Source: an uncultured Verrucomicrobiae bacterium (GTDB taxonomy: Bacteria; Verrucomicrobiota; Verrucomicrobiia; Limisphaerales; JAFGQR01). From it: a DNA stretch of 64,000 bases. Below are positions 10,042 through 56,810 of this stretch, piece by piece. The DNA is taken from assembly GCA_963788655.1 (NCBI GenBank), contig CAWBHS010000049.1, positions 32,001-96,000 on the forward strand. Direction: 5' to 3'. How positions within the stretch are numbered: the stretch's first letter is position 1; each line of letters starts with the position of its first letter. The notes beneath the pieces are model-generated. The model had not been told where the DNA came from, did no database searches, and worked only from the letters and a program-made list of their open reading frames with translations. The position numbers and the translations under genes are program-made.

Positions 10042-10490
10042 TGTTCCCTCTCCCCGAGGGAGAGGGTCAGGGTGAGGGGGAACAGTGGATTCGACCTGCG
10101 CAGCCGGTCCACATGGAATGGCGTTTGCCCTCCGCGATTTTCAAACGTTATGGATGGCCGGACGGTTCCTTCCCCCTCACCCCGGCCCTCTCCCCCGGGG
10201 AGAGGGAGAATCGCCCTCCGCTGGTTTGAAATACTGCAAGTGCTCGGTTATTCGTACGGCTTTACCACAACCAGAGAAGAGGCGGAGATTGGAATTGTCG
10301 CTTTCGAACGTCTCGCGGCCGACGACGATTGTTCCCTCTCCCTTAGGGTGAGGGGGAACAGAGCGGGCCTCCCGTGCAGCCGGTTCGAATGGGACAGCGA
10401 AGGCGCTCCACGAATTTCTAGCGGCGCGGGTGGCAGAACGGTTCCTTTCCCCTCACCCCAGCCCTCTCCCCGGGGGAGAGGCAGAACGTT
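10042..10490. repeat. Two diverged direct copies of a REP doublet of the CCCTCACCC..CCCTCTCCC..GGGAGAGGG family
   Basis: Units at 10046-10080 and 10172-10207, and at 10334-10358 and 10449-10481; the spacers within the two doublets are recognisably homologous. Confidence 0.8.
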
Positions 10491-12061: not shown

Positions 12062-12724
12062 ATGGCCCTGCTGCAACTCGAACAAGTCAGTAAAACCTAC
12101 CGCCGGCAAGGCGATGGCGAGGTACGCGCGCTCGAGGGTGTTTCGTTGTCGCTCAAGGCGGGGCAATTTATGGCGGTCAAAGGCCCGAGCGGTTGCGGCA
12201 AAACCACCTTGCTGCTTCTGGCCGGGGGGTTGCTCGAACCGACTTCCGGCCGCGTCGTCATCGATCAGCAGAATCCGTATGCCTTGCCGGCGGACCAACG
12301 CGCGCGGTATCGAGCTGCGGCCGTTGGTTTCGTGTTTCAACAATTTCATCTGGTGCCGTACCTCAGTGTGCTGGACAACGTGCTGACGCCGGCCATTGCC
12401 GCGGGCAACGCTGAGGCCCTGCCCCGGGCCAAAGAACTCATCGCGCATTTTGGTTTGGAGCCACGCCTGCATCACGTGCCAGGTGAACTGAGCACCGGTG
12501 AGCGGCAACGGACCGCCCTGGCGCGGGCATTGTTGAATCGACCCAAACTCCTCCTGGCCGACGAGCCCACCGGCAATCTCGACCGCGACAATGCGGATGC
12601 GGTCCTGCACTACCTCGCCGAGTTCGCCAAGAACGGCGGCGCCGTCTTGCTGGTTTCCCATGACGACCATGCCGTCCAACATGCGATGGACGTGATTCAA
12701 CTGCGCGCCGGTCGGCAGATTTGA
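12062..12724 (+). CDS. ABC transporter ATP-binding protein (LolD/MacB-like)
   Basis: GPSGCGKT, LSTGERQR, LLLADEPTGNLD, VSHD. Confidence 0.93.
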   Translation: MALLQLEQVSKTYRRQGDGEVRALEGVSLSLKAGQFMAVKGPSGCGKTTLLLLAGGLLEPTSGRVVIDQQNPYALPADQRARYRAAAVGFVFQQFHLVPYLSVLDNVLTPAIAAGNAEALPRAKELIAHFGLEPRLHHVPGELSTGERQRTALARALLNRPKLLLADEPTGNLDRDNADAVLHYLAEFAKNGGAVLLVSHDDHAVQHAMDVIQLRAGRQI

Positions 12725-12919
12725 GTCAATGACCATAGCGCTTTTCGACCAGCTCACACCCAACGGACGACCTATGATCCGGCTCTCGCGCAATCAAGTT
12801 TCAACGGGGGCGAAAAACGGAAATCAATTTGAGTTCGGTTGCCTTGTTTCCTCTTGAACGAATGGCCGCGATGACTTGCGACCGCTTCTTTTTAGAAAGC
12901 ACGTCGGCCATGTTGCTGT

Positions 12920-13057
12920 TCACGCCTTCGCGCAAAGCTCGCTGTCCTTTTTGGTGAACTCGCGGGACTTTTCTTCCATCCCGCTCTTTTTTAAGGCTTC
13001 TTCTTCGGCGATGCCTTGGTCTGCCGCATATTTCCGCACGTCCTCCGTTATCTTCAT
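12920..13057 (-). repeat. thiC 3'-tail-like repeat, copy A (45-aa open frame)
   Basis: Translates [45 protein letters not shown], which resembles the segment following the final Cys of ThiC. Confidence 0.75.
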
Positions 13058-13063
13058 GGCAGG

Positions 13064-13324
13064 TCAGCGGTAAACTTCGCGGCGGTGGCGCACGCGGTTG
13101 ACGCGCACGACGCGAATCTCGTCGGCAATTTCGTAAACCACGCGGTAGTCGCCCACGCGGATGCGCCAGTCGTGCTTGCTGCCCGCCAGTTTACGGCAAC
13201 CGGGCGGGCGCGGATTCGTCGCGAGTGCTTGAATCGCCGCGATGACGCGGTCGTGAATCTCGGACGAGAGGCGGGCGAGGTCTTTCTCGGCGGCGCGTTC
13301 AAGCAGGACGCGATACATGGTCAC
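13064..13324 (-). CDS. relE: RelE/ParE family toxin
   Basis: YRVLLERAAEKDL, NPRPPGCRKLAG, WRIRVGDYRVVYEI, HRREVYR; overlaps the antitoxin stop. Confidence 0.92.
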   Translation of the reverse strand: MTMYRVLLERAAEKDLARLSSEIHDRVIAAIQALATNPRPPGCRKLAGSKHDWRIRVGDYRVVYEIADEIRVVRVNRVRHRREVYR

Positions 13325-13521
13325 TTGCGGTTGCGCTCGGCGAGGTAGTCCTCCAGCGGACGATAATGGAGCGGCTTGCGGCGGGCGCGCTTGAGCCAGG
13401 CCACATCGTCAGAATCCTCCACCCGCTCCAAAAGTTCCTCGTAGTCCTTGATGGGGATGATGACGGAGACGGGTTTGCCTTTGCGCGTCACGATTTCAGG
13501 TTCGGACAATGTTGCTTTCAT
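13321..13521 (-). CDS. Phd/YefM family antitoxin
   Basis: IVTRKGKPVSVIIPIKDYEELLERVED, immediately upstream of the toxin. Confidence 0.85.
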   Translation of the reverse strand: MKATLSEPEIVTRKGKPVSVIIPIKDYEELLERVEDSDDVAWLKRARRKPLHYRPLEDYLAERNRK

Positions 13522-13541
13522 GGCCTGCAGGTTATCACCGT

Positions 13542-13676
13542 TCACGCCTTTGCGTAAAGCTCACTGCCCTTCTCGGTGAACTCGCGGGACTTTTCATCCA
13601 TCCCCTACTTCAACGCCATTTCCTCGCCGATGCTTTGTTCGGCGGCGTATTTCTGCACGTCTTCCGTGATGTTCAG
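13542..13676 (-). repeat. thiC 3'-tail-like repeat, copy B (internal stop)
   Basis: Translates LNITEDVQKYAAEQSIGEEMALK*GMDEKSREFTEKGSELYAKA*; direct repeat of 12920-13057. Confidence 0.75.
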
Positions 13677-13822
13677 GCGGCAAACGTAGTGGAATCAACG
13701 CCGACTGCAAAGGCGGGAATTACGCCCGGCGAGTCGCCGAACGCGGCAGGCAGGATGCGCTGCGCTATTTTCATTTTTCTGCTTGGCGGCATGTCCGCCA
13801 CGCCGGATCCCAGCACACAAGC

Positions 13823-16800
13823 TCAAGGGCCGACACTCGTCGTGAAATTCGCGGAGTTCTTCCCGCGTTTGTTTTCATAGCCGATGCCGGCGTGCCATTC
13901 GCCCTGACCGGTGGGTCGGATGGTGCCGTTGAAGACTCCGGGGCTTTGGCCCTTCTCCAATTGCGCGGCGGCTTGCATCGCCATGCCGGGCATGTCCATC
14001 CGCAATTCGAGCCAGACCGATCCCACATCCACCGGCTTGCCGGTGGCGTCGGTGACTTCGATGCGAATCGCGTTGTCGCCCATGCGAAGTTGCGTGCCCT
14101 CGCCAAGGACTTTGAACTGATAGGGGCCGACGGTCTGGGTGGTTATCACCGCAGTGGGTGTGGACGGACCGCTCAGGCTGTGCCACAACCACCAGCCGCC
14201 GCCGCCCAGCACCAGGGCTCCAATGACGATCGAGGCGATCAATAGCTTGCGCACCGGCTTCGCTTCAGCCGGCGGCGCTTCGACTCCGCGACTGCGCCAC
14301 AGGAAATAAACCAGCGGGACGATCAGCAGGGTAAGGATCGTGGTGCTGACCATGCCGCCGACCATCGGCGCGGCAATGCGTTTCATCGCCTGGGCGCCGG
14401 TGCCGTGGCTCCACATGATCGGCAGCAGGCCGGCGAAGATCGCGAAGAAGGTCATCATCACGGGCCGCACGCGTTGAGTCGCGCCGTCGCGGACGGCTTC
14501 CATCAGAGCGCCGTAGGTGGGTTTCGGATTATTCTTCTTGAGGTTCTTCCAGGCCTCGTCGAGATAGACGATCATCACCACGCCGATTTCGGTGGCCACG
14601 CCCGCCAGCGCGATGAAGCCGACCGCCACCGCCACGCTGAAGTTGTAGCCGAGCAGCCAGATAAGCCAGATGCTGCCCACGGTGGCGAACGGCAGCGTCA
14701 GCAGCACGAGGAACACTTCGACCGGATTTCGGAAGTTGAGATACAACAACACAAAAATGATGACCAGGGTCATCGGGACCACCAGCGCGAGGGTGGCACG
14801 CGCCTCCTGCATGTATTGATATTGGCCGCCCCAGCCGAGGAAATAGCCCGGTGGCAACTTGATGTGTTCGGCAACCAGTTTCTTGGCGCTGGTCACGTAG
14901 CTGCCCAGGTCAATCCCCTTGGTGTCCACGAAGACGAAGCCGTTGAGCAGTCCGTTTTCGTCGCGGACAAAGGCCGGCCCGGTGGTCAGATGGATGTCGG
15001 CCAACTGTTCCATCGGCACCTGGGCGCCGGTGGGCGTGGCCACGAGCACGCGGCGCAGCGCTGGCACGTCGTGGCGCAACGCCGGTCCGTAGCGGATGTT
15101 GATCGGATAACGCTCGCGGCCCTTGATTACCGTGGAAATGGTCATGCCGCCGATGGCCGATTGAATGACGTCCTCCACGTTCCCCACCGTCAGGCCGTAG
15201 CGGGCGATCGCCTTGCGATTGATCTCGAAGTTGACGTAGTAGCCGCCGGTGACCCGCTCCGAGAAAACGGTGGCCGTGTGCGGGTCCTGTTTGAGCAACG
15301 CCTCAATTTGTTCGCCGATCTTTTGAATGACGCCGACGTCGGGGCCATAAACCGTGATGCCAATCTGGCTGCGGATGCCGGTGGAGAGCATTTCCGTGCG
15401 GGTCTGGATGGGCATCCACCAGATGGCCGGCGCACCGGGAGTTCGCACCAATTTGTCCAGGCCTTCCTTGATTTTGTCGAACGTCATGCCAGGACGCCAT
15501 TGGTCCTCGGGTTTGAGGGTGATTACGGTTTCCGTCATGGACAGGGGCGCGGGGTCCGTGGCGGTGCGGGCACGACCGACCTTCCCATACACATGCTCGA
15601 CTTCGGGGAAGGTCATGAGCGCGGCGTCCTGCTTTTGCAGAATCTTCTTCGCCTCGGTGATCGAGATTCCCGGGACGCTGGTGGGCATGAACAGCAGCGA
15701 GCCTTCATTCAACGGCGGCATGAACTCCGATCCAATCCGGCTCAACGGAAACCAAGTGATCGCGAGCACCGCCAGCGCCAGCAGCAGCGTCACCCATTTG
15801 AACCGGAGCACGAAGTTGAGAAACGGCCGGTAGATCCACGAGAAAAAGCGGCTGATCGGATGCCGGTGTTCGGCGGCGATTTTGCCGCGGATGAACCACA
15901 CCATCAGGATCGGCACAATGCTCACGGACAACAAGGCCGCGAAGAACATCGAGAAGGTCTTGGTATAAGCGAGCGGCTTGAACATCCGGCCCGACTGCGC
16001 CGTGAGCGCGAACACCGGCAGGAATGACACCGTGATGATGAGCAGGGAAAAGAACAGCGGCTTGCCCACCTGTTTGGCGGCGGAAACCATCACGTCCAGG
16101 CGCGTCATGCCGGCGATCTCCCGTTCCACCTCGGTCAGGGCTGCGTCGCCTTCCTGGTCGCGTTTGGCGCGGGCATGGTTCCACCGTTCGAGCCATTTGT
16201 GGGCGTTCTCGATCATGACCACCGCGGCATCCACCATCGCACCGATGGCGATGGCGATGCCGCCCAGCGACATGATATTGGAGGAGACGCCGAGCGCCAC
16301 CATGGCGATGAAGGAAAGCAGGATGGCGACGGGCAGAACCAGAATCGCGACGAACGCGCTCCGGAAATGAAACAGAAAGAGAATGCAGACCAGACTGACG
16401 ATGATGCTTTCCTCAATGAGTTTGCTCCGGAGATTGCTGATGGCGCGCAGGATGAGATCGGAGCGGTCGTAGCCGGTGACAATCTTCACGCCGGGCGGTA
16501 GCGACGGCTTGAAAGCTTCCAGTTTGGCTTTGACGGCCTGAATGGTCGTGAGCGCGTTCTCACCGTAGCGCATTACGACGATGCCGCCCACGGCCTCGCC
16601 TTTGCCATCCCAATCGAGCGCGCCGCGGCGCAGGTCCGGCGCGAAATGGACGTTCCCGATCTGCTGGACGGTAATGGGTGTGCCATTGGTATCCACTCCG
16701 ACCACAACGTCTGCGATGTCGCTCAGGGTCTTGATATAGCCCATGCCCTTGACCATGTATTCGGTCTCGCCGTATTCGATGACCCGGCCGCCGACGTCGT

Positions 16801-17545
16801 TGTTGGAGTCGCGGATGGCCATGATGACCTTGGTCAACGGGATGTGGTAGGCCAGCAGTTTGTTCGGATCCACGTCCACTTCATATTCACGGACGAATCC
16901 TCCGATGCTGGCCACTTCGGCCACGCCCGGCGTGTTTTGCAGGTAGTAACGGAGATTCCAGTCCTGAAGCGTGCGCAAGTCGGCCAGGCTGTTCTGGCCG
17001 GTCGTATCCACCAGCGCGTATTCATAGACCCAGCCCACGCCCGTGGCATCCGGCCCCAGCGTGGGCCGAATGCCCGGTGGCAGATCGCCCATGGCCTGGT
17101 TGAGATATTCCAACACGCGGGAGCGCGCCCAATACATGTCGGTGCCGTCCTTAAAGACAACGTTTACGAATGACAGGCCGAAGAACGTCTGGCCACGCAC
17201 ATATTTGACGTGAGGTGCCGCCGACAGAACACTGACGATGGGATAAGTGATCTGGTCCTCGACCAACTGCGGATCCCGGCCCGGCCATTCCGTGAAGACA
17301 ATGACTTGAACATCGGACAGGTCGGGAATCGCATCGAGCTTGACGTTCTTGACGGCCACCACTCCGGCGACGATGAGAAACAAGACACCCACCAGCACAA
17401 GGAACTGATTGTGCGAGCACCAGCCGATGATGCGTTCGATGGCGGTTTCGTCACTGACCAGCCAAGCGGGTTTCGCGGCAGACGGACTTTCTTGCCCCGG
17501 TTTGCCGGCCGGTTCGTCCGCTTGCGTTGGTTTATCCGGGTCCAT
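13823..17545 (-). CDS. cusA: CusA/SilA heavy-metal RND permease with extra C-terminal TM and YtkA/FixH-like domain
   Basis: [60 protein letters not shown]; tail GDNAIRIEVTDATGKPV...MDMPGM. Confidence 0.93.
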   Translation of the reverse strand: MDPDKPTQADEPAGKPGQESPSAAKPAWLVSDETAIERIIGWCSHNQFLVLVGVLFLIVAGVVAVKNVKLDAIPDLSDVQVIVFTEWPGRDPQLVEDQITYPIVSVLSAAPHVKYVRGQTFFGLSFVNVVFKDGTDMYWARSRVLEYLNQAMGDLPPGIRPTLGPDATGVGWVYEYALVDTTGQNSLADLRTLQDWNLRYYLQNTPGVAEVASIGGFVREYEVDVDPNKLLAYHIPLTKVIMAIRDSNNDVGGRVIEYGETEYMVKGMGYIKTLSDIADVVVGVDTNGTPITVQQIGNVHFAPDLRRGALDWDGKGEAVGGIVVMRYGENALTTIQAVKAKLEAFKPSLPPGVKIVTGYDRSDLILRAISNLRSKLIEESIIVSLVCILFLFHFRSAFVAILVLPVAILLSFIAMVALGVSSNIMSLGGIAIAIGAMVDAAVVMIENAHKWLERWNHARAKRDQEGDAALTEVEREIAGMTRLDVMVSAAKQVGKPLFFSLLIITVSFLPVFALTAQSGRMFKPLAYTKTFSMFFAALLSVSIVPILMVWFIRGKIAAEHRHPISRFFSWIYRPFLNFVLRFKWVTLLLALAVLAITWFPLSRIGSEFMPPLNEGSLLFMPTSVPGISITEAKKILQKQDAALMTFPEVEHVYGKVGRARTATDPAPLSMTETVITLKPEDQWRPGMTFDKIKEGLDKLVRTPGAPAIWWMPIQTRTEMLSTGIRSQIGITVYGPDVGVIQKIGEQIEALLKQDPHTATVFSERVTGGYYVNFEINRKAIARYGLTVGNVEDVIQSAIGGMTISTVIKGRERYPINIRYGPALRHDVPALRRVLVATPTGAQVPMEQLADIHLTTGPAFVRDENGLLNGFVFVDTKGIDLGSYVTSAKKLVAEHIKLPPGYFLGWGGQYQYMQEARATLALVVPMTLVIIFVLLYLNFRNPVEVFLVLLTLPFATVGSIWLIWLLGYNFSVAVAVGFIALAGVATEIGVVMIVYLDEAWKNLKKNNPKPTYGALMEAVRDGATQRVRPVMMTFFAIFAGLLPIMWSHGTGAQAMKRIAAPMVGGMVSTTILTLLIVPLVYFLWRSRGVEAPPAEAKPVRKLLIASIVIGALVLGGGGWWLWHSLSGPSTPTAVITTQTVGPYQFKVLGEGTQLRMGDNAIRIEVTDATGKPVDVGSVWLELRMDMPGMAMQAAAQLEKGQSPGVFNGTIRPTGQGEWHAGIGYENKRGKNSANFTTSVGP

Positions 17546-17550
17546 GTAAC

Positions 17551-18927
17551 TCAATGCTGATGTCCACCGCCGGTCGCTGAGGTGCGAAGCTGGCTTTCGC
17601 TGTCCAGCAGGAAGTTGCCGTCCACCACGACTTTTTCGCCTTCCGTCAGTCCTTGATTCACGACCACTTGTCCGCCCTCGACATGAGATCCCAACTCAAT
17701 GCGCCGGGGAACGAAGTGTCCGCTGGTCACCTCCACAAAAACATACTGGCTGACGCCGGTGTCATACACCGCCGTCTGCGGTATCAACAGGCGTTCGCCC
17801 GCATCAACCTGGATTTCCGCGTTGGCGTAGTCATTGGGTTTGAACAGCCCGTCGGGATTGTCCATCACCAGTCGCGCCGTTGTGGTGCGGGTCTGATTTT
17901 CTGAATACGGGTAGATGAAATCCACCTTGGCGTGATAAACTTGGCCGGGATGCGCGATGGCCGTGACCTTCACGCCTTGTCCGACTTTCGCGTAAGGCAG
18001 TTCGTATTCGTAGAGCTGGGCGTTGATCCACACGGTGCTCAAATCCGCCACGCGGTAGAGCGTTTTCCCCAAGCTGACCATTTGCGCGGGATCAATGTTC
18101 TTCTCGATCACATAGCCGGTCACCGGCGCGCGGAGCTGCAGGGTGTCGGTCGGTTTGCCGGACTTCTCCACCGCGGCGATTTCGTCGTCGCTGATTTCCC
18201 AGAGTTTGAGCCGTTTGCGGGCCGATGCCGCCAGCGTCGCCGCTTCGGTCATGCTCTCCTGCCACACGACGTTGTTGGTCTGGGCCGCATCTTTCGGTGG
18301 AAGGTGTTTCAGCCGCTCACCATGCCGGTAGGCCAGCAGGTATTCGTATTGGGCCGAATACAATTCCGGGCTGTAAATGTCCATCAGCGGATCGCCCTGT
18401 TTCACGAACTGGCCCGGCTTGTCCACGTAAAGCTTCTGGGCCCAACCCATGATGCGCGCGTTCACGTTGGCCAGCCGGGTGTCGTCGTAAGTCACAATGC
18501 CCACGGTGCGAATCGTCACCACCGCGTCACCGTTCGTCACCGCCCGGGTGCGGATGTTGATGAACTGGCGCTGCGCCAGGTCCAGATCCACCGGGCTGCG
18601 ACCGGGAACAAGTTCGTTGGTGGATGCTGTCTGGCTGCTGTGCTCGCCGCCAGGCATCGGCATGTTGCCCATGTTCGTCTCACCTATGGCTGGCGTGTTG
18701 GTGGCGGCGGGTATCGGCATCTTCATGCCGGGCATGGACTGGTTCATTCCCGTCGTGCTGCCGTGGTCGGACGGCATCGTGGAAGACTGCATGTTCGTGT
18801 CCGTGTGATTGGCCTGAGCAGCGGCGTCGGATTTCTTCCGGCAACTCACAGCCGCGAGTGCCAGCGTGGCCAGGACCACGACTGCGACCGCGGCTTTCGG
18901 GATTCGATTGATACGAGGCAGCTTCAT
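17551..18927 (-). CDS. cusB: CusB-like RND periplasmic adaptor, Met-rich N-terminus
   Basis: Lipoprotein-like AVSC, GWAQKLYV, IYSPELYSAQYEYL, ADLSTVW, DFIYP, GNFLLDSESQL. Confidence 0.9.
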   Translation of the reverse strand: MKLPRINRIPKAAVAVVVLATLALAAVSCRKKSDAAAQANHTDTNMQSSTMPSDHGSTTGMNQSMPGMKMPIPAATNTPAIGETNMGNMPMPGGEHSSQTASTNELVPGRSPVDLDLAQRQFINIRTRAVTNGDAVVTIRTVGIVTYDDTRLANVNARIMGWAQKLYVDKPGQFVKQGDPLMDIYSPELYSAQYEYLLAYRHGERLKHLPPKDAAQTNNVVWQESMTEAATLAASARKRLKLWEISDDEIAAVEKSGKPTDTLQLRAPVTGYVIEKNIDPAQMVSLGKTLYRVADLSTVWINAQLYEYELPYAKVGQGVKVTAIAHPGQVYHAKVDFIYPYSENQTRTTTARLVMDNPDGLFKPNDYANAEIQVDAGERLLIPQTAVYDTGVSQYVFVEVTSGHFVPRRIELGSHVEGGQVVVNQGLTEGEKVVVDGNFLLDSESQLRTSATGGGHQH

Positions 18928-20333
18928 GGTTTTCTGACTTTCTCGGACGTGAGGAACGACGTTTCTCCGCCAACCAGTTTTTCCACCGTGGAGAAACCTT
19001 GCTCCCGATCCGCGACCGCCCGTTCGTAGGTTAGTTGGAATTCCAGCAGGACGCGTTCGGCATCAATGAGCGAGAGAAAATCGGATTTGCCTGACTCAAA
19101 CGAACGCTGAATCACTTTTACGTTCTCGTCCGCCTTGGGAATCAATGCGTCGCGGTAAAGGACAACCTTGCGCTCTGCGTCCTGGTACTGGAACAAGGCG
19201 AGTTGGAGGTCGGTGCTGAGGTGGTTCGCCCGGTCCCGGCGTTCCTGCAGCGTGGCGGCGTAACGACTCTCCGCCTCTCGCACGCCGGCGCGATATTTGC
19301 CCCACCAAAGCGGAATGTTCACTGAAAAACCAGCCACCACCGCGTCCTTGCCGCTGTCCGCCACTCCTGACATCCGGGCCGGACCGGTTTCAATGTAATC
19401 CACTCCCAGCGTCACGTCCGGATAGAATTCCTTTTTTTGCCAGCGCGATGTTCGCTTTGTCCTTCCCGGCCAGGTAATCGAGGCTCTTGAGTTCCGGGTT
19501 GGCGGCTTTCAACCGTTCGAGGAGGTTGGAGGATTCGGTGGAAAGTGTCGCTGGTACAATGTTGGTTGGAAACGACAGCGGCGCCTCCGCAGGGCGATTG
19601 AGGGCGGCGTTGAGCCGCGCCGCTGTCGGGTTCTTGAGGTCGTTAACGTGCGGAGACGGTCGCGGGTCTTGTCCAGTTCCACCTGCGCCTTGATCACATC
19701 ACCGTTCATGGCCGTGCCGGATTCATACTTTGACCGAGCGATTTCCTCGAATTGTTTGAGCAGTTCCACATTCGCTGCGGTGACGGAGATGGCGCGGCCC
19801 ATGTAGTAAAGTTCGTAGTAGGCCTGTTTGACCTCGTCGAACAACTTCAGTTTGGCGGCCTCGTATTGTTGCTGCGCGGCGTTCGCGCCTTCGAGCGCGC
19901 CCTCGCCTCGCAGTTTCAATTTGCCGAACCACGGGAACATCTGGCTGAGACCCACGCGTTGCTCCTGCGGTCCGACGCGCGTTTCGACTTCCTGAATAAA
20001 GTAACCATAGTTGAAGCGTGGGTCAGGCAGCGTGCGCGCCTGAGTGACCATCTCCAGCGCGGCTTTCCAACGATTGAAGGCCGCCTCCAGTTGCGGATTG
20101 TTTAACGCAGCGTAAGCAAGGTAATCCGGAAGGCCGGAGCTCGCGGTCAAGCTTGACAATCGGCCTGTGGCCGAGGCCCGGCTGGAGGACGGCGATGCGG
20201 TCGGCGCTTTGGTTTGCAGTTCCTTGAAAGCATGCCCCTCCTGAGATGTCGCGCAACCCACTGCCAGCAATAAACCGACACTTAGCAGCCAGCAGCGGTT
20301 CAGTTTCGTTCGACGGTTCCGTTTCCTGCTCAT
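18924..20333 (-). CDS. cusC: CusC/TolC outer-membrane factor (frameshifts ~19645 and ~19435)
   Basis: LAVGC lipobox, ARTLPDP, SQMFPWFGKLKLR, NIPLW, DFLSLIDAER; split over ORFs 19509..20333 and 18924..19415. Confidence 0.82.
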
Positions 20334-21824: not shown

Positions 21825-24270
21825 TCAGAGTGCCGTCTTCCGCAACCGCAGGGCGTTGCCGACGACCGACACCGAACTGAAGCTCATGGCGGCGCCGGCA
21901 ATCATGGGGTTGAGCAACAACGCCAGGAAGGGATACAGCACGCCGGCGGCAATCGGGATGCCGATCGCATTGTAGAAGAAGGCGAAAAAGAGGTTCTGCC
22001 GAATGTTCCGCATTACCGCCCGGCTCAGGTGAAAGGCCTTGGCAATGCCCATTAGGTCGCCTTTGACCAGCGTGATGCCTGCGCTCTCGATGGCCACGTC
22101 CGTGCCGGTGCCCATCGCCACCCCCACGTCAGCCGCCGCCAGGGCGGGCGCGTCATTGATGCCATCGCCAGCCATTGCCACCACGGCGCCCTGACGCTTG
22201 AGTTGTTTGACGATCTCGTGTTTCTCCTGCGGCATGACCTCGGATTTCACCTCGTCTATGCCCAATTCGCTTGCCACGGCTTCGGCGGTCTTCCGGTTGT
22301 CACCGGTACAGCATGATTATTTTGATGCCGAGTTGGTGCAGCGTCTGGATGGCTTCGCGGGTCGAGTCCTTGATCGGATCGGCAATGCCCAACAGCCCCA
22401 GGGCGTGATCGCCTTGGGCCACCCAGACGACCGTTTGGGCTTTTTCCTGGAGCGCGAGCGCGCGTTGGCTGAGTAGGTCGGTAATACTCACGCCGGCCTC
22501 ACGCAGGAACTTTTCTTTGCCCACACGCACCAGATCGCCCTGGATCTTGCCCTGCACGCCGCCACCGGTCGTGGACTCGAAGGCGTCCACGGACTCGAGT
22601 TGAATCTCCTTTTCCTTGGCCGCGTCCACAATCGCCCGAGCCAAAGGATGTTCGCTTTGTTGTTCGATGGAGGCCGCGAGCTGCAGGAGTTTCTTGTCGT
22701 CCAACTCTGCGGCAGGAACCATGTCGGTGATCTTTGGTTTGCCGGCGGTCAGGGTACCGGTTTTGTCGGTAACGAGGTGGGTTACCTTTTCAGTGCGTTC
22801 GATGGCTTCGGCGTTCTTGATCAAAATCCCCGATTGCGCCGCCCGGCCGACGCCAACCATGATGGACATCGGCGTGGCCAGGCCCAAGGCGCAAGGGCAG
22901 GCGATGATCAGCACGGACACGGCGTTGACCAGCGCGTAAGCCAGCGCAGGTACCGGTCCCCATAAGGCCCAGACAATGAACGTCAGAATGGCCGCGCCAA
23001 TGACCGCCGGCACGAAATAACCAGCGACTGTGTCCGCGAGCTTTTGAATTGGCGCCCGGCTGCGCTGCGCCTCCGAGACCATCTGGACGATTTGCGCCAG
23101 CAACGTTTCGCTCCCGACCTTCTCCGCGCGCATGAGAAACGCCCCGGTCTGATTTACGGTCGCGCCAATGACCTGGTCGCCCGCGCCTTTGCTCACCGGG
23201 ATGGGTTCGCCGGTGATCATCGACTCGTCCAGGTTGCTTATACCTTCAATGATGACGCCGTCCAACGGCACCTTTTCGCCGGGCCGGACGCGGAGTTGGT
23301 CGCCTTTCTGGAGTTCGTCAACCGGAACCTCTTCCTCCTGACCGTTCCGAACCCGGTGGGCCGTTTTGGCGGCCAGGCCGAGCAACGCTTTGATGGCCTG
23401 GCCGGTGCGGCTGCGCGCCTTGGCCTCGAGCATTGGCCCATCAACACCAACACGGTGATCACCGCCGCGGCTTCAAAGTAAAGCCCCACCTCGCTGCCGT
23501 GCCGAAATGACGCCGGAAAGATTTGCGGGAATACCACCGCCACGGCGCTGTAAAAGTAAGCTGCGCCCACGCCCACCATGATCAACGTGAACATATTCAG
23601 GCTGCGATTGACGATGGATTTCCAACCGCGCACAAAGAACAGACTGCCCGCCCACGAAGACCACCGGTGTCGTCAAGGCGAATTCGATCCATTTGGAAAT
23701 ACCCCTGGGGATGACGGCCTCCACATCAAGGCCCAACCAACCGCCCATCGCGATCAGTAACACTGGAATGGTGAGCCCCAGCCCAATCCAAAACTTGCGT
23801 GCCAGCGAGCGGATTTCCGCATCGTCCGCCGTCGGCGTAGCCACCGTCTTCGGTTCGAGCCGCATCCCGCATTTCGGACAATCTCCCGGATGGTCCTGCT
23901 CGATTTCCGGGTGCATGGGGCAAGTGTAGATGGTCCGGCGTCGAGGCGGGCGCGGGCGTTATCGACTCGAGCGCCATGCCGCATTTGGGGCAATCGCCGG
24001 GCTCATCCGAAACCACTTCCGGATGCATCGGGCAAGTGTAGCGACCTCCACTCGCCCGAGGCGGATCCGCATCCATTGCGCCGGGAAAATACTTTTGCGG
24101 TTCAGTGCGGAATTTTTCCAGGCAGTGTTGGCTGCAGAGTAGTAGGTGGTGTCCAGGTGCTCCTGAGTTCCGGCGGCATCTTCCGGCCGGATCTCCATAC
24201 CACAAACGGGATCTTTTCTGGTTCTTTTAGTGTTTGTTCCGGGTTTGGCGTTTTTCATTGATGTGCTCAT
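21825..24270 (-). CDS. copA: Cu(I)-transporting P1B ATPase with YHS and two YTCPMHP domains (several frameshifts)
   Basis: KDPVCGM, 2x [38 protein letters not shown] and MSFSS, spread over consecutive frames. Confidence 0.88.
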
Positions 24271-25993: not shown

Positions 25994-26021
25994 TATACGT
26001 TCGCCGGGTCCAAATCACTCA
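25994..26021 (-). promoter_or_regulatory. Putative ECF sigma promoter, copy 2 (autoregulatory position)
   Basis: TGAGTGATTT-N12-CGTATA, ~75 nt upstream of the anti-sigma gene. Confidence 0.65.
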
Positions 26022-26161
26022 AGAAAGGTTTGGGTGTTTTCTTCTATAGTCTGCCACAGCCGGACTGGTTTGGCGTGATTGCCGCAGTTCGCTACGGCTA
26101 ACAGAGTCCGCTGGGAGGTATGCTTCAAGCATGGTGGTCGGCAATTGACCTTTGAAGTTCG

Positions 26162-29100
26162 TCATGCCGGCACTTCGGTCACAACCGGCGGTGGCAGTTG
26201 GGTCTGCCGCCGGATGGCCCGCGAACGCCACAGGTAATAGATCGCCGGGAAGACCACCAGTTCCATGATCACCGAGGTGACCACGCCGCCGATCATCGGC
26301 GTGGCGATGCGCTTCATCACGTCGGCGCCCGCGCCGTGGCTCCACATGATCGGCAGCAGGCCGGCAATGATCACCGCCGCCGTCATGGCTTTGGGCCGGA
26401 CGCGCTTGACCGCGCCGTGGTAGATGGCGTCGCGCAGGTCGGCCAGGTGAGCGCATCAGTCCCTTTCTGCGTCCACTCGTCAAAGGCCAGGTCCAGATAG
26501 AGCAGCATGACCACGCCGGTTTCGGCGCTGATGCCGGCCAGCGCAATGAGGCCGATCCAGACCGCGACGCTCAGGTTGTAGTGCAGCCAGTAAAGCATCC
26601 AGATCGAGCCCACCAGCGCGAACGGCACCGCCAGCAGGACGATGGCGGTTTTGATCGCCGAGCGCGTGTTCAGGAAAATGATCAGCGTGATGATGAGCAG
26701 CGTGACCGGCACGACGAGCATCAAGCGTTGCTTGGCGCGCATGCATGTATTCGTACTGGCCGCTCCAGAAGAGGTTGTAGCCGTGCGGCAGGTTGATCTG
26801 GCCTTTGGCGATGGCTTCGTTGCACGGCGTGCTGGGCCATCTGCACGTAGGTGCCGACATCAATGTCTTTGATGTCCACGTAAATCCAGGCGTTGGGCAC
26901 CGGCGCCCTCGCTCTTGATGCCCGCCGGGCCGTCCACCACTTTGAGCGTGGCCAGTTCGCCCAGCGGCACCTGGGCGCCGGTGGGCGTGGGAATGACGAC
27001 CTGGTCGCGCAAGGCCTGCGAGGTCCTGGCGGTAATCCCGGTCGTAGCGCAGGTTGATCGTGTAGCGCTCCAGTCCTTCGACCGTCGTGGTGAGCGGCAT
27101 GCCGCCCAAGGCCACGGCCAGCACGTCCTGCACGTCGCCGAGGGTCAGGCCGTAGCGGGCGATGGCGTCGCGATTGATTTCGAACTCGACGTATTTCCCG
27201 CCCATGACGCGTTCGGCGTAGGCGCTGGTGGTGCCCGGCACCTCGCGGACCACGGCTTCGATTTGCGCGCCGATCCGTTCCAGCGTGGCCAGGTCGGGGC
27301 CGGCCACCTTGATGCCGACCGGCGTCTTGATGCCGGTGGAAAGCATGTCAATGCGCGTCTTGATCGGCATGGTCCAGGCGTTGGCCAGGCCGGGGAACTG
27401 GATCGCGCTGTTCATCGCGTCCACCAATTCGTCCGGCGTGCGCCGGCGGTGGGCGATGACGTTGCCGTCGTCGTCCTTGATGTCCACTGCCGGCCATTCC
27501 TCTTCCGGTTTGAGCATGATGGTGGCTTCGATCATGTTGAGCGGCGCGGGATCGGTGGCGGTGTCCGCGCGGCCGACCTTGCCGAAGACGTGTTTCACTT
27601 CCGGGAAGCGTCTTGATGATCTTGTCGGTCTGCTGCAGCAGTTCGCGCGCTTTGGTGACCGAGATGCCGGGGAAGGTCGTCGGCATGTAGAGCAGGTCGC
27701 CTTCGTAGAGCGGCGGCATGAATTCCGAGCCGAGGTTCTGGATAGGGAAACAACTTCCCGGCCTTGAAGGCCAATTCCTTGACCGGACCATCGGGCAACG
27801 AGTCGCGCGACCAGCCGGTTCCACGGCAGGAACACCCACAGCACGGTGATCGCCGACAGCGCTGACAATCCACCAGCGCCAGCGGATCGACCCAGTCAAT
27901 CAGCGGATGATAGATCCAGATCAGAAACCGGTTGATGGGATTCTTCTCCTCGGGCGGCGATTTTGCCGCGGATGAAATAGCCCATCAACACCGGCGCCAG
28001 CGTGATGGAGAGCAAGCGCCGCCGCGGCCATCGAGTAGGTCTTGGTGAAGGCCAGCGGCTTGAACAGCCGCCCTTCCTGCGCCTGCAGCGTGAACACCGG
28101 CAGGAACGAAACCGTGATCACCAGCAGCGAATAGAACAGCGTCGGCCCGACTTCGACGCGAGGCGTCGCGGATGATCTGCCAGTGCGGCTTTCTTGCCCT
28201 TGTCGTGCTCGAGATGTTTGTGGGCGTTCTCGATCATGATGATGACCGCGTCCACCATCGCGCCGATGGCGATGGCGATGCCGCCCAGCGACATGATGTT
28301 CGAACTGATGCCCTGGCCGATACATGACCAGGAACGAAATCAACACCGCGATGGGCAGGATCACGATGGCCACCAGCGCGCTGCGGAAGTGCAGCAGGAA
28401 CAGCAATGCACACCAGCGCCACCACGAGGCTTTCCTCGAGCAGCTTTTCTTCCAGCGTCTTGACGGCGCGATCAATCAGCGCGGTGCGGTCATAGGCGAT
28501 GGTGTATTGCACGTCCGGCGGCAGCGACTTCATCGCCTGGTCGAGTCGCTTCTTCACGTCCTGGATGACCTGCGCGCGCGTTGGCGCCGTAGCGCACGAC
28601 GACGATGCCGCCGACGGTTTCGCCCTCGCCGTTCAGTTCGGCGATGCCGCGGCGCATTTCGGGTCCGAATTGCACGTTGGCCACGTCGCGCAACAGGATG
28701 GGCACGCCGTTCGCGCCGACGCCCACGGCGACTTTCCGCAAGTCGATCGAGGTTCTGGATGTAGCCTTTGACGCGCAGGATGAACTCGCGTTTCGGCCAT
28801 TTCGATCGTGCGTCCGCCGACCTCGCCGTTGCTGCGCTGGATGGCCATGCTTGACGTGCGACAACGGAAGGTTGTAGGCGCGCAGTTTCACCGGGTCCAC
28901 CGTCACCTGGTATTGCTTCACGAACCCGCCGACCGAGGCGACTTCCGAGACGCCCTGGACGGCGCTCAATTGATATTTCAAATACCAGTCCTGATACGAG
29001 CGCAGTTCCTGCAGGCTGCGGTTGGTGGAGTTGATGGAATACATGAACGCCCAGCCCACGCCCGGTGGCATCCGGACCGAGCGTGGGCGTGACGCCGCGG

Positions 29101-29466
29101 GGCAACTGGCCGCCGATCTGGCTGAGATATTCCAGCACGCGGCTGCGCGCCCAATAGGGATCGGTGCCGTCCTGGAAGATCACATAGACGAACGAGAAGC
29201 CGTAGAACGAATAGCCGCGCACCACCTTGGCTTTGGGCACGGAGAGCATCTTGGTGGTGATGGGATACGTCACCTGGTCCTCGACGATCCGCGGCGCCTG
29301 GCCCGGATATTCGGTGTAAGATGATGACCTGCACGTCCGACAGGTCGGGGATGGCGTCGAGCGGGATGTTCTTCAGGGCATAGACGCCGCCCAGCACCAG
29401 CGCCAGCGTGGCCAGCAGGACGATGAACTTGTTCTTGAGCGAAAAATCAATGATGGCTTTGAGCAT
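26162..29466 (-). CDS. cusA: Second CusA/SilA RND permease (many frameshifts)
   Basis: [75 protein letters not shown] across successive frames. Confidence 0.85.
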
Positions 29467-32615: not shown

Positions 32616-32754
32616 ATAGTTTTTCAGCGTTCAAGGGGCAAATGCCGTCCACGTTAGCGGAGCCGGTGGCTTGAAGCGACGAATGGCTCCAAGGCATGCC
32701 ATGGTTGTTGCTCAGTCTGCGATGGGTTGCGCCTGTTTTGACGGCCGTCTCCTT

Positions 32755-32925
32755 CCCCCTCACCCCGGCCCTCTCCCCCAGGGAGAGGGAGGGCCCTTCG
32801 CCGCGCTCGACTAGCGGCGAAACGCCCAGACCGCACGAAACGGGGCATCTCCAAACATGGATTCGAATCACAGGTGCGTGTCATCGGCTTTTCCCTCTCC
32901 TGGGGGAGAGGGGCAGGGTGAGGGG
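32755..32925. repeat. REP doublet of the CCCTCACCC..GGGAGAGGG family
   Basis: 32755-32790 and inverted 32893-32925; same family as the repeats at 10.0-10.5 kb. Confidence 0.8.
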
Positions 32926-34549: not shown

Positions 34550-34723
34550 GAAGGATTCCGGTCATGTTTTCGTGTTTCATCGCCAGCGGTTCCTCGGGTT
34601 TCGTTTTTACCGGGTAGTGTCAAAGGAACATGGCGACCTGTTAAGCCGTTCGGCGTTGGTGCGAGTCCAACCCTGGCGGAGAGTCCTGGGATATTTATGT
34701 ATGGCGGTCTGCGCTTGTTCGGG

Positions 34724-52426: not shown

Positions 52427-53132
52427 TGCGATCGCCTCGCCATTCCCATCCGGTATCCAGTATCTGGCATCCAGCATCCAATATTCGTCCCTACTTCAAT
52501 TCCGCCAAAATCTTCTTGGCGTCGGCCACGTAAGGAGCGTTGGCATCCAAGGTCACGGCCTTTTGCAGGGCGGCTTTGCTGTCGGAGGACTGTTTGAGTT
52601 GGTAATGGGCCATTCCCAGATAGTACTGCAGTTCGCCGTCGGTGCCGCGTTGCACGGCGGCTTGCTTCAGCAATTGGGCGGCGCGTTGGTAATCTTTGCG
52701 CTGATAGACGGCGAGGCCCAGAGCTTTGGCAACCTCCGCGTCGCCGGCGTAGGCTTCGCGAGCTTTGGAGGCATGCTCGAAAACCTTGTCGTAGTCCACT
52801 GGCGGTTGGAGGTAAAGCAAGGCCAGTTGCTTGTTGGCCGGGGTGAACAATGGGAAACGCGCCAGCGCCTGCGCACAGGCTTGTTTGGCGGCGTCCAGGT
52901 TGCCCTGCTGCCGGTAAATCGTCGCAGCCGCCATCAGTGCCGGGACGTAGTCCGGTTGCTCCTTGAGCGTGGCCCGCACCTGGGCCTGGCCGGCGACCGC
53001 TTTGGCGGGGTCGGCCGCGAGTTCGTTCATCTGGAGAAAGCTTTTGGCGCTTTCGGCGCGCGCAAAGTTCGGATTGGTTTCTAACGCGCTTTGCATTCGA
53101 TTGGTGGCGTCCGACACCTGCCCGATGCTGTA
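52427..53132 (-). repeat. Diverged duplicate of the TPR-gene 3' end and its downstream flank (orphan fragment 52491-53135)
   Basis: Direct repeat of ~56741-57452; near-identical in the middle, diverged toward 53130. Confidence 0.92.
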
Positions 53133-53204
53133 CATAATAAATAAAGTGACAGGTTCAAAGTTATTGACAACTTACGCTCGCTTCCGGCACATTTGAGATC
53201 ACCT

Positions 53205-54172
53205 ATGAGATTGGCACGAATCAAAGTTCACGGGCGAAGTGCGGTGTATCACTGCATGTCGCGAGTGGTGGCTGGACAAGCCTTGCTGGATGACCTCGGC
53301 AAGGAGCAGCTCGTTCAAATCCTCTTTACGCTCGCCACTTTCTGCGGGATTGAGGTCATTACTTACTGCATGATGTCCAATCACTTCCATATCCTCGTCC
53401 GGTACCGGAGAAGCAGAATCCATCCGACCAGGAATTGGTCGAACGAATGGAGGCATTGTACGGCCCGAAAGGCACTTTGGTGCAACTCGCCAAGAAAGGG
53501 CTGGCAAATCACGGCTGCGTGGACCAAGACATCCGAGAAGGAATGTTGGAGCGGATGGGGGACGTATCGGCGTTCATGAAGGAACTCAAACAGCGGTTCA
53601 GCCGCTGGTATAACCGACAGACCGGACGTTTCGGCACCCTGTGGGCCGAGCGGTTCAAAAGCGTTTTGGTAGAGGATCAGCCCAGCGTCGTCGAAACCCT
53701 GGCCGCCTACATTGACTTGAATCCAGTGCGCGCCGGATTGGTGAATGATCCCAAGGATTATCGTTTCTGCGGCTATGCGGAAGCCTTGGCGGGAAATAAA
53801 GCGGCGCAGGCAGGTTTGCTGAGTTTTCAAAAGTCCAAAGAATGGAAACAGGCCAGCGCCGAGTATCGGCAGCGATTGTTTGTGGGAGCCGGTACGGCAG
53901 GACGAAGTGATAAAGCGTTGCTGGACCGGGAACAAATCAAGCGCGTGTTGGCCCAAGGCGGAGAATTGAGCTCAGCGCAGATCCTGCGGTTACGCCTTCG
54001 TCATCTGACGGATGGGGCGGTACTGGGCTCGAAGTCGTTTGTGAACGAGATTTTCGCATTACACCGGGAAAGATTTGGCGCAAAGCGGCGGAGTGGGGCA
54101 CGACCGATTCGGGGAGTGCCATTGGCGCACCTGAGCGTTTTGCGTGATCTGCGCGTTGGCGCGATCACATAG
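53205..54172 (+). mobile_element. Y1/HUH (IS200/RAYT superfamily) transposase, long form (frameshift ~53401)
   Basis: VYHCMSRVV, YCMMSNHFHILV, FMKELKQRFSRWYN, GTLWAERFKS, YIDLNPVRAGLV..PKDYRFCG; TTGACA at 53164. Confidence 0.88.
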
Positions 54173-54330
54173 GTCGAGGCGAGCAAGGCGGAGCGCGCCG
54201 CTACTCTCGGATTTGGCCGGATTTCGTGGTTCATACTTGGGCCTTCTTGGTTCGTCGTCCTTCGCTCATCCTACTACATCCTCTGCACATCCTCTACAGA
54301 TACCAGATACCAGATGCTGGATGCCGGCGG

Positions 54331-54510
54331 GTAGGGCGAGACTCCCGTCGAGCCCAAACTTCTCCTCATCATTGCCAATCATCCAAGACCATGAGCGCGG
54401 GAAGTGTTGGTATTTCAAACGTCAGGGATCTCTCAGGTTCAAGCCATACGTATTGGAAATGAGCGTGGAGAATCAGGGAGAAATCAGGGCTCGACGGAGT
54501 CTCGCCCTAC
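54331..54510. repeat. REPIN-like hairpin element, copy 1
   Basis: GTAGGGCGAGACTCCCGTCGAGCCC ... GGGCTCGACGGAGTCTCGCCCTAC with a conserved core. Confidence 0.9.
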
Positions 54511-54577
54511 CGGCACCCGGAGGAAAATGAGATGCCGGATGCCGGATACCGGACGGCGGATTTTAAAACAATAATGC

Positions 54578-54615
54578 TTGGCAGAATGATATGTCAGGCA
54601 TAGTTTGTCTGACAT
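54578..54615 (+). promoter_or_regulatory. TA promoter and operator
   Basis: TTGGCA-N17-TAGTTT overlapped by the inverted repeat ATGTCAGGCA..TGTCTGACAT. Confidence 0.6.
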
Positions 54616-54889
54616 GAAAACGCTTACCATGCGAGATTTGAACCGGAAGACAGCGGGGGTGCTGGACGCACTGGAGCGGGGCGAGACTTTTGAACTGCAC
54701 CGGAACGGCAAAGTCATTGGCTATCTGACGCACACCGCGCCGCCTCCGGAACGGAAACCCGATTGGCAAGCCCACCTTGATTGGCTGAAGCGGCAGCCGA
54801 AAGGGCGCGGCAAGCATTTGGTGGCTGAGTTTGAAGCCGACCGCCAGCGTCTCCGCGCTCGTGAAGAGGGAGTGGGTGGCGTCCAATGA
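54614..54889 (+). CDS. Phd/YefM-type antitoxin
   Basis: MKTLTMRDLNRKTAGVLDALERGETFELHRNGKVIGYL. Confidence 0.85.
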   Translation: MKTLTMRDLNRKTAGVLDALERGETFELHRNGKVIGYLTHTAPPPERKPDWQAHLDWLKRQPKGRGKHLVAEFEADRQRLRAREEGVGGVQ

Positions 54890-55359
54890 AATTCGCGGCC
54901 GACTCCAGTGTCCTGGTCCGATTATACCTCGACGCCACCAAAGCGGACGCCATTGCACGTTTTCTGGCGGATGCCGCCAGCGTGGTCAGTGTTTCCGACC
55001 TGGCGCGAATCGAAGTGCTGAACGTGCTGCTGCGAGACCCGGAACTGGGTGCGGCCGCCAAGTTTGAAGAGGACCTGGCCGAAGGGATTCGCCTGCGCTC
55101 AGAACCGGTGGTTTGGCCGGACGTTTTTCAGCAAGCCGAGAGCCTGGCGAGGCGATTTACGCGCACGCTCCGTCCGGGCGGGCACGACTTGGTGCTGGTG
55201 GCGGCCGCAGTGGTGATGGGGGCCACTTGGTTTCTGTCCTTCGACCGGAATTCGCGCCAACGTCCGCTAGCTGGCGCCGCCGGACTGCACGTTTGGCCGG
55301 CACTGGACAAAGATGAGAAGGGCTTGATCCGGCACGCCTCGCGGCAGGCAACGAGCTGA
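54886..55359 (+). CDS. vapC: VapC/PIN toxin
   Basis: ADSSVLV, EVLN, HDLVLVAAA, FLSFD; ATGA overlap with the antitoxin. Confidence 0.87.
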   Translation: MKFAADSSVLVRLYLDATKADAIARFLADAASVVSVSDLARIEVLNVLLRDPELGAAAKFEEDLAEGIRLRSEPVVWPDVFQQAESLARRFTRTLRPGGHDLVLVAAAVVMGATWFLSFDRNSRQRPLAGAAGLHVWPALDKDEKGLIRHASRQATS

Positions 55360-55424
55360 CGTGGGGGCGAGGTGGGTTGATGCCGGATAGCGGGTGCCGG
55401 ATGCCAGTTGGCGGGTGGCGGCGG

Positions 55425-55594
55425 GTGGGGCGAGACTCCGTCGAGCCCAAACTTCACCTCATCGTTGCCAACCTTCCGAGACCGTGAGCGCGGGAGGTGT
55501 TCGCGTTTCAAACGTCAGGGATCTCTGGGGTTCACGCCAAACGTATTGGGAATGAGCGCAGGAGAAATCAGGGCTCGACGGAGTCTCGCCCCAC
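55425..55594. repeat. REPIN-like hairpin element, copy 2
   Basis: GTGGGGCGAGACTCCGTCGAGCCC ... GGGCTCGACGGAGTCTCGCCCCAC. Confidence 0.9.
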
Positions 55595-55639
55595 CGGCGA
55601 ATGGAGGCTGATGAGCGAAGGAAACGACTCGCACCGTCA

Positions 55640-55677
55640 TTGACAACCTGAAGTTGGTGAATCAAGATTTGATTCAC
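55640..55677 (+). promoter_or_regulatory. TA promoter and operator
   Basis: TTGACA at 55640; perfect palindrome GTGAATCAA-GAT-TTGATTCAC (55657-55677) just before ATG 55679. Confidence 0.7.
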
Positions 55678-55678
55678 G

Positions 55679-55936
55679 ATGAAGACAGCAAGCATTCGCG
55701 ATTTGCGAACCCGGTTTCCGATGTTGGAGGCCTGGCTGAAGAACGGCGAGCAAATCGAGATCACCAAGCGCGGCGAACCGGTGGCCCGGCTGGTTCCGTC
55801 GGCCCGAGGGAAAAAATCCAAGTTGGTCAAACCGGACATCATGGCGCGGTTGAAGATGACGTGGGGAGATCGCGTATTTTCCACCGCCGAAGTGGCCGAA
55901 ATGCGAGCCGCGGAAGGGGAGGGTGAGGAAGGATGA
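55679..55936 (+). CDS. Phd/YefM-type antitoxin
   Basis: MKTASIRDLRTRF...GEQIEITKRGEPVARLVP. Confidence 0.88.
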   Translation: MKTASIRDLRTRFPMLEAWLKNGEQIEITKRGEPVARLVPSARGKKSKLVKPDIMARLKMTWGDRVFSTAEVAEMRAAEGEGEEG

Positions 55937-56384: not shown

Positions 56385-56550
56385 AATGCGGCGTTTGACA
56401 CAACGGCCAGATAGCTTTCCAAAACGCCGGGTTGCAACGGGAAGGGCTTTGTACAGCACGCTTCGGAACAGGAAACGGGCTGACGAGGATTACGTGAGAT
56501 GCTGGATATCGGCTGCTGCACACCGGATTCCGGATGGCAGATGCCGGCAG

Positions 56551-56723: not shown

Positions 56724-56810
56724 CGAAGTCTTTATGGTGGTGCAATCGCCTCGCCATTCCCATCTGGTATCCAGTATCTGGCATCTGGCATCAGCATCCG
56801 ATATTCGTCC

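Follow-up and report, generated by a model that had tools for sequence, protein, structure and literature searches.

A toxin-antitoxin pair between two thiC tails, and arrays of thiC tails with defence genes, in Verrucomicrobiota

In integron arrays, small cassettes follow one another closely, mostly in the same orientation and with a repeated element between them, and toxin-antitoxin and defence genes abound in them. In complex class 1 integrons with ISCR1, cargo lies between a full and a partial copy of the 3' conserved segment, an arrangement explained by a circle that integrates via homologous recombination. Here we describe an arrangement that resembles both. It was found in a 64,000-nucleotide stretch of DNA from an uncultured Verrucomicrobiae bacterium (contig CAWBHS010000049.1, positions 32,001 to 96,000; the whole stretch is called the window below). 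In the window a toxin-antitoxin pair lies between two copies of the 3' end, or tail, of the housekeeping gene thiC, and related genomes carry rows of such tails with defence genes between and behind them.

An earlier report from Helicobacter pylori is said to precede the work of Furuta, Abe and Kobayashi on insertion with long target duplication. In the latter paper (Furuta, Abe and Kobayashi 2010, PMC2853133), defence-type restriction-modification (RM) genes form inserts of less than 20 kb that are bordered by long direct target repeats (46 to ~420 bp). These inserts carry no integrase or transposase, and some of the repeats overlap the 3' end of a gene. The authors suggest that such genes are inserted, amplified by way of the repeats and then released, in a cycle. 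Tycheposons (bioRxiv 10.1101/2020.12.28.424599) use tyrosine recombinases and tRNA targets and form tandem islands flanked by partial tRNA copies. thiC itself has served as a target for foreign DNA in Streptomyces coelicolor, where a pSAM2-like element is inserted in it (PMC2440964).

How do the thiC tails compare with these systems? We scanned genomes, one per species, for thiC tails; 530 matches were confirmed and the best 80 were examined, which make up 73 loci. Of the features that PMC2853133 gives for long target duplication, direct repeats longer than 30 bp are present in the window (139 nt, 80% identity) and in the relatives, where they run from 24 to ~255 codons. The insert in the window (484 nt) is shorter than 20 kb and encodes no integrase or transposase. 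As for a target that is single-copy in insert-free genomes, 50 of the 73 loci have a single thiC 3' end, but none of these is established as the same site without its insert, and the window tails have no target gene beside them. The thiC arrays differ from the insertions described there in several ways. They reuse one conserved housekeeping gene across a phylum. Their cassettes stack up to 4 copies, and their repeats reach ~255 codons. Their cargo includes toxin-antitoxin and many non-RM defence genes, and a short motif, which we call m1, accompanies many of the copies. In the window, finally, the target gene is no longer adjacent.

Other likenesses are more distant. As in tycheposons, newcomers would enter at one site and push older ones outward, leaving a row of partial target copies and degraded remnants; unlike tycheposons, the thiC arrays have no recombinase beside them, their target is protein-coding and their repeat varies in length. 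The pSAM2-like element shares thiC as a target, but it encodes a serine integrase and plasmid functions, and its host belongs to another phylum. thiC-tail cassettes are packed, mostly co-oriented and separated by a repeat, as integron cassettes are, yet this repeat is a coding fragment of a housekeeping gene and there is no IntI, attI or attC-type imperfect hairpin. As in ISCR1 integrons, cargo stands between a full and a 5'-truncated copy of the same segment; unlike there, no ISCR/IS91-type gene is found, only sporadic IS200-like Y1 transposases (in 3 of the 73 loci, and once in the window, in a second case at a TPR gene). An integron was considered for the window itself and rejected: no integrase is encoded there, and the tail folds on both strands with z-scores of -0.9 to -1.4 and no end-to-end hairpin. 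A search of the literature on thiC as an integration or defence hotspot, or as a site of integrases or genomic islands, found no description of thiC-tail arrays.

According to PMC2853133, the mechanism of such insertions is still unknown. With one conserved gene targeted again and again, the junctions, mosaic ends and flanking motif can be compared across cases, which makes the mechanism testable.

The two thiC tails in the window and the pair between them

All parts of the element lie on the minus strand, where the order from 13724 down to 12801 is a degraded stretch, tail B, an antitoxin gene, a toxin gene, tail A and a vsr-like stub. The first-pass annotation, made from the sequence alone, had taken the two tails for the C-terminus of ThiC and had seen no thiC in the window. 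Both points are borne out. Residues 1-35 of copy A match residues 512-546 of the Arabidopsis ThiC structure 4s25 (phmmer, E 5e-5). In blastx both copies align with a full Verrucomicrobiota ThiC (from locus L020), copy A at 620-664 and copy B at 606-664 (ThiC positions are those of a 664-residue reference throughout), and the matched C-terminal segment follows the Cys-rich cluster motif. None of the 60 open reading frames (ORFs) of the window matches ThiC_Rad_SAM, and tblastn with full ThiC finds the two tails only. There is no third tail in the window either, the next matches having E values of at least 0.29. The window tails are fragments of thiC and not functional genes.

Copy A (12920-13057) covers ThiC positions 621-664 with one extra codon and the stop, and is an intact ORF of 45 codons with an ATG start. 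The core of copy B (13542-13676) covers positions 621-664 and the stop, as seen in its translation, in blastx and in alignments to copy A and to the thiC genes of relatives. It is one codon shorter than copy A, begins with Leu instead of Met and contains an internal TAG; judged by these defects, copy B is a pseudogene fragment. Identity between the two copies is 79.9% over 139 nt (blastn, E 5e-31), or 71% over 45 amino acids, and their likeness ceases a few bases beyond the shared TGA. Alignment and translation agree with the annotation that the copies end at the same TGA and that one has an internal stop. The claim that they begin at the same codon holds only roughly: blastx and alignment indicate that copy B probably extends ~15 strongly degraded codons upstream (13677-13724, back to about ThiC position 606). 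The blastx match over ThiC 606-664 has 62% identity, weak in the extra stretch, and a hand count on the alignment gives ~14 of 23 bases matching thiC immediately 5' of the core. Copy A adjoins the toxin gene directly and shows no comparable upstream trace of thiC.

The insert of 484 nt between the tails holds the toxin-antitoxin pair alone. The antitoxin gene (13321-13545), of the Phd/YefM-RelB type, has a GTG start that overlaps the stop of tail B and an alternative ATG at 13521. Its product matches PhdYeFM_antitox in Pfam (E 7e-7, 29.3 bits against a cutoff of 29.8), a RelB-like profile (E 1e-5) and phd_fam in NCBIfam (27.6 bits, above the cutoff of 20.8). The toxin gene (13064-13324, 86 codons) belongs to the RelE/ParE superfamily; its product matches ParE_toxin in Pfam across the full profile (E 3.8e-14) and RelE_StbE in NCBIfam below the cutoff (E 3e-5). 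The genes are adjacent and co-oriented with the antitoxin first, the toxin start overlaps the antitoxin stop by 4 nt and both products have family matches, all as expected of a type II module. The pair looks intact in its sequence. The coordinates and spacings of the repeats also stand as first given: 20 nt separate the stop of tail B from the antitoxin ATG, and 6 nt the toxin stop from the ATG of tail A.

Behind tail A, beginning 8 nt after its stop, lies a probable 5' fragment (~36 codons, 12801-12911) of vsr, the gene for a very-short-patch repair endonuclease. It matches profile positions 1-28 of Pfam Vsr (E 0.0055, 17 bits against a cutoff of 27), and a comparison with solved structures gave no match. 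The stub looks like a remnant of a further cassette of RM type.

Might a tail be a gene in its own right, expressing a useful peptide of 44-45 residues or, in relatives, a longer C-terminal fragment of ThiC? The intact frame of copy A with its ATG would suit such a gene, and so would several facts from other genomes. With copy A as query, a large protein collection yielded 516 short proteins (24-79 residues). Among the 120 best of these, 58 have exactly 44 residues and the same starting Met, and others have an unrelated N-terminal sequence fused to the tail. Among the 41 partial copies listed, 23 lack a stop or indel (the 41 include 4 pieces of frameshifted full genes and the 2 window copies), and where m1 adjoins a partial copy its open frame is nearly always in phase with thiC. 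Yet copy B has a stop and has lost its first Met, and copy A, besides its one-codon insertion, deviates at three near-invariant columns of a consensus of 50 tails. Moreover, a gene caller yields a 44-residue ORF whenever the frame is broken upstream of Met 621. We know of no activity for a ThiC fragment that lacks the radical-SAM core, which also counts against such a gene; we regard it as very improbable.

Arrays of thiC tails and defence genes in relatives

The first-pass annotation had proposed that the tail is a cassette boundary, and it had named as telling against this a peptide that does not match ThiC, or a pair of copies without counterparts and without variable cargo in relatives. 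Neither is what we found. Relatives do carry variable cargo between thiC tails, and arrays of thiC, cargo and tail occur in 23 of the 73 loci. It is the scale and regularity of these arrays that make the window of interest, and the tail as a cassette boundary is right in outline. Nearly all of the 73 loci come from genome bins labelled Verrucomicrobiota, or from mislabelled bins; the window's own genome is not among the loci kept (best identity 89%).

The 23 loci hold 2-4 thiC 3' copies each, always on the same strand, and represent ~22 independent cases, L013 and L017 being nearly the same. In those records that show it, the first copy is part of a full thiC or is open into the contig edge; L043, like the window, holds orphan tails only. 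Later copies are truncated at their 5' side, at ThiC positions that include about 410, 424 (twice), 468, 487, 492, 499 (twice), 502-503 (six times), 534, 544, 563, 582-583 and 605-641. The truncated copies are ~24 to ~255 codons long, with starts that cluster near positions 503 and 621. The repeat unit is not the fixed 45-codon tail that had been supposed but a thiC 3' fragment of very variable length. Many contigs break inside thiC, often near position 500, as would be expected if assemblers stop at the repeat. The arrays explain many of these breaks, as well as many 44-residue ORFs annotated as 'phosphomethylpyrimidine synthase'. Four long contigs (L040, L023, L047 and L073) carry thiC in multiple frame-shifted pieces, which may be pseudogenes or errors of long-read assembly; these pieces were kept out of the discussion of partial copies.

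What do the tails enclose? We scanned 391 ORFs: 138 from loci with several copies, 132 that closely follow single tails and 121 from farther out (of at least 200 codons, to the ends of the loci). The cargo between and right behind the tails consists mostly of RM, toxin-antitoxin and other defence genes. The RM genes encode N6/N4, C5 and D12 methylases, EcoRV, Eco29kI with Dcm and Vsr, type I subunits, BstXI-like and Mrr proteins, GmrSD with HEPN, and RAMA; the toxin-antitoxin genes are of Phd-PIN, PIN and Zeta-like types; and other defence-type cargo includes an OLD-family nuclease, AAA_13, Schlafen-like, DUF4238, NOV_C and YhcG proteins. Housekeeping genes prevail a few kb further out, where a DUF4256 gene recurs as a far neighbour in 7 loci. 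A crude count took in the 91 tails that have 700 nt or more of sequence behind them. The first ORF of some size after the tail is co-oriented in 58 cases, opposite in 29 and absent in 4, and in 30 of the 58 co-oriented cases it starts no more than 40 nt past the thiC stop. The 3' flank of thiC is a place to seek new defence systems in Verrucomicrobiota.

Three loci resemble the window in their particulars. L009 has a thiC tail with a frame that is open as far as the contig edge, and behind it stand the first 28 codons of an antitoxin gene homologous to that of the window; this junction of tail and antitoxin (L009:21-245) is 80% identical over 232 nt to window positions 13461-13692. L009 continues with other genes and ends in m1 and a thiC fragment. 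In L073 a Phd homologue with 69% identity over 51 residues lies beside Zeta-like genes, 1.4 kb behind thiC. L025 carries a complete cassette of Eco29kI, a C5-methylase (Dcm) and Vsr behind an orphan thiC tail, and the vsr-like stub behind tail A of the window fits such a cassette.

These parallels bear on a plainer account, in which the window tails are the debris of a dead thiC locus or of a local segmental duplication, mean nothing for mobility and came to flank a toxin-antitoxin pair that landed between them by chance. Copy B is a pseudogene fragment, no thiC is nearby and the region is rich in broken genes (a split cusA paralogue, a split P-type ATPase gene and a split outer-membrane factor gene), all of which would suit debris. 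But each tail is closer to tails of other genomes than to its partner: tail A has 91.7% nucleotide identity to the thiC tail of L003 and tail B 85.6% to those of L002 and L003, against 80% between the two. The junction of tail and antitoxin is common to the window and L009, the relatives have ordered arrays with cargo, and the cargo junctions in the window (6, 8 and 20 nt) are as tight as those in the arrays. Mere debris seems to us improbable.

Mosaic thiC ends and a proposed capture of cassettes

How does cargo come to lie between a full thiC and a truncated copy of its end? A tree of positions 505-660 from 67 thiC copies has two major clades (SH-aLRT 95 on each branch), and seven loci (L003, L004, L034, L044, L048, L022 and L029) have their thiC-attached copy in one clade and their distal copy in the other. 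Identity profiles along thiC break near position 503. L003 and L034 are 0.97, 0.93, 0.99 and 0.885 identical in the four bins of 201-502, and 0.80-0.87 after 503; similarly, the identity of L044 with L046 falls from 0.91-0.93 to 0.81, while that of L044 with L003 rises to 0.95. The clade split and the breaks in identity indicate that thiC ends have been exchanged between lineages, and the distal copy looks, from these comparisons, like the displaced end of the resident thiC. The 3' coding region of thiC retains ~80% DNA identity even to enterobacterial thiC, so it could serve as a widely shared homology arm, and the variable length of the repeat fits homology arms better than a fixed att core.

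As to the recombination site that the first-pass annotation had suggested, the gene content does not point to one served by a dedicated enzyme. Tyrosine and serine recombinases (Phage_integrase, Resolvase and Recombinase profiles) are absent from all 391 ORFs of the 73 loci and from the 60 ORFs of the window. The sole mobility genes among the 391 are one DDE transposase gene (L024) and IS200-like Y1 transposase genes (L003, L059 and L063). General homologous recombination fits at least as well as a dedicated recombination site. The mosaic ends, the variable repeats and the lack of a local recombinase are all in keeping with a single crossover between the resident gene and an incoming thiC 3' fragment with its cargo, an arrangement that agrees with the long target duplications described for RM systems (PMC2853133).

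We propose, as the likeliest route, that DNA carrying a thiC 3' fragment and cargo, probably a circle looped out between two donor repeats, would undergo one crossover with the resident thiC, within the 3' segment common to both. The crossover would restore a full thiC, its end now derived from the incoming DNA, and would displace the resident end behind the cargo as a truncated copy. Repeated rounds would stack cassettes. In the window, tail B and the Phd-RelE pair would form one unit, and with tail A and the vsr stub another would begin. Whatever preceded tail B, be it the thiC body or earlier units, would since have been lost together with the remainder of the vsr cassette, leaving the fragment between cusA and the gene for an ABC transporter. 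Movement as tail-cargo-tail units, which the annotation had suggested, is inferred. On balance, and with confidence slightly better than even, we read window positions 12801-13724 as what is left of a thiC-tail cassette array after decay and displacement, the array itself having arisen by homology-anchored insertion with long target duplication.

Several observations weigh against this reading. Some lie in the window and in the sampling. Neither window tail adjoins a thiC body, so that the model requires a later, untraced rearrangement, and the flanks of the window have no synteny with the thiC neighbourhoods of relatives, matching only through generic ABC and RND paralogues. Among the loci and collections examined we saw no circular form, no empty site and no plasmid or phage vehicle. 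Phage and plasmid collections were searched with a partial copy and the motif upstream of it, and they matched in the thiC-coding part only; the loci themselves are drawn from one genome per species and from the best 80 confirmed matches. Other observations concern the regularity of the boundaries. About seven partial copies start at or near ThiC position 503, and Met 621 is the precise starting point in four different junction contexts (window copy A, L043:7714, the L043/L051 type and L059); both recur beyond what illegitimate joining would lead one to expect. In most loci the cargo follows the thiC stop immediately, a placement that suggests a specific site more than chance. Finally, m1 could be an arm of a recombination site.

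The motif m1 is a conserved sequence of ~70 nt found at 18 places in 14 loci (for example L003:3075-3164, L001:4691-4740 and L029:7320-7387). It is always co-oriented, stands mostly directly 5' of a partial thiC copy and contains two short direct repeats. At its 3' end it meets thiC at no fewer than five different positions, and in 13 of the 14 adjacent copies m1 has an open frame in phase with that of thiC, the exception being L062. It has no similarity to ThiC and is absent from the window. Rfam gave no match for m1 in L003, L029 or L044, the sole clear hit being the expected TPP riboswitch before thiC in L044.

On this evidence the thiC 3' end could instead be an att site of a site-specific recombinase encoded elsewhere. 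The cassettes would then lack integrases and be mobilised in trans, much like integron cassettes or cis-mobilisable elements, and tails A and B would be att-type sites flanking one cassette. The recurrent boundaries near 503 and at Met 621, m1 with its direct repeats at the 5' side of partial copies in most of its 18 places and the cargo within a few bases of the thiC stop (in half or so of the co-oriented cases no more than 40 nt) would all be natural for such a site, and the pSAM2-like insertion with its serine integrase in S. coelicolor thiC (PMC2440964) is a precedent. Yet no tyrosine or serine recombinase occurs among the ORFs scanned, in relatives or in the window. The same end of m1 is found at five or more thiC positions, which is unlike the architecture of a fixed site, and the window has no m1. 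The tails form no attC-like hairpin, as their fold z-scores indicate. The same architecture, moreover, recurs in the window at the unrelated TPR gene. We consider an att site rather unlikely, though a recombinase acting in trans is a rival to be taken seriously. The regularities of boundary and frame suggest either selection for translatable fragments, perhaps ones that avoid polarity on the next cassette, or an enzyme encoded elsewhere that handles the end of the element.

The arrays might even amount to a phylum-wide capture of cassettes that needs no dedicated recombinase beside it. The conserved 3' end of thiC would act as a portable recombination arm, and each insertion would repair the gene and file its old end behind the cargo. 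The fragments would be kept translatable, by an in-phase m1 leader or an internal Met, so that the row of defence genes is co-expressed with thiC. We offer this generalisation tentatively, and doubt it more than we credit it. If it is true, the TPR case in the window means that the process works at other genes too.

The TPR gene and the surroundings of the tails

The second case involves a TPR gene at 56811-59726 on the minus strand. Its last 213 codons are repeated at 52491-53135(-) with 92% amino acid identity (E 9e-134). The repeat includes at least 50 nt past the stop (52440-53135(-)), and its DNA is near-identical in mid-copy, with ~80% identity at the 5' edge. The DNA that separates the copies holds a frameshifted gene for an IS200-like Y1 transposase (53193-54172) and two Phd-like/PIN pairs (54605-55359 and 55679-56400). 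The TPR case looks fresher than the thiC case. The intact parent gene is adjacent to it, as in the thiC arrays, which argues that the process is general and not bound to thiC. The stretch from 54300 to 56750 consists of three tandem units of ~1.1 kb (spacings 1093 and 1128 nt) with REP-like palindromic separators, each unit built around a small antitoxin/PIN-type pair.

Around the thiC tails themselves, an ABC ATPase gene converges on the vsr-like stub from its downstream side. On the other side a cusA-type gene of 1243 codons ends 98 nt upstream of tail B (stop at 13823), and there a metal-resistance region of 20 kb begins, so that the element does sit at the edge of that region, as had been stated. 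No step in base composition marks the borders of the tail and toxin-antitoxin patch or of the metal island. The promoter-like sequence reported upstream of copy B, TTGCAG-N16-TACGTT, is present as a string, but a consensus scan of 12600-14000 gives no promoter-like site.

The metal-resistance region (13823-34469) contains the intact cusA paralogue (13823-17554), with a YtkA-like C-terminal domain, and a second cusA paralogue in at least four pieces (26019-29273). A P-type ATPase gene (21825-23433) and an outer-membrane factor gene (18924-20333) are split, and there are several heavy-metal-binding-domain repeats. Paralogous stretches ~12 kb apart within the region are 70-84% identical. At its far end, positions 34608-34679 (+) give a marginal tRNA-like match in Rfam (29.4 bits against a gathering threshold of 29) and none in ARAGORN; this could be a degraded tRNA or an att remnant. 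Short G+C-rich repeats (families D7 and D13) lie on both sides of the region, at 10069-10486 and 32742-32791.

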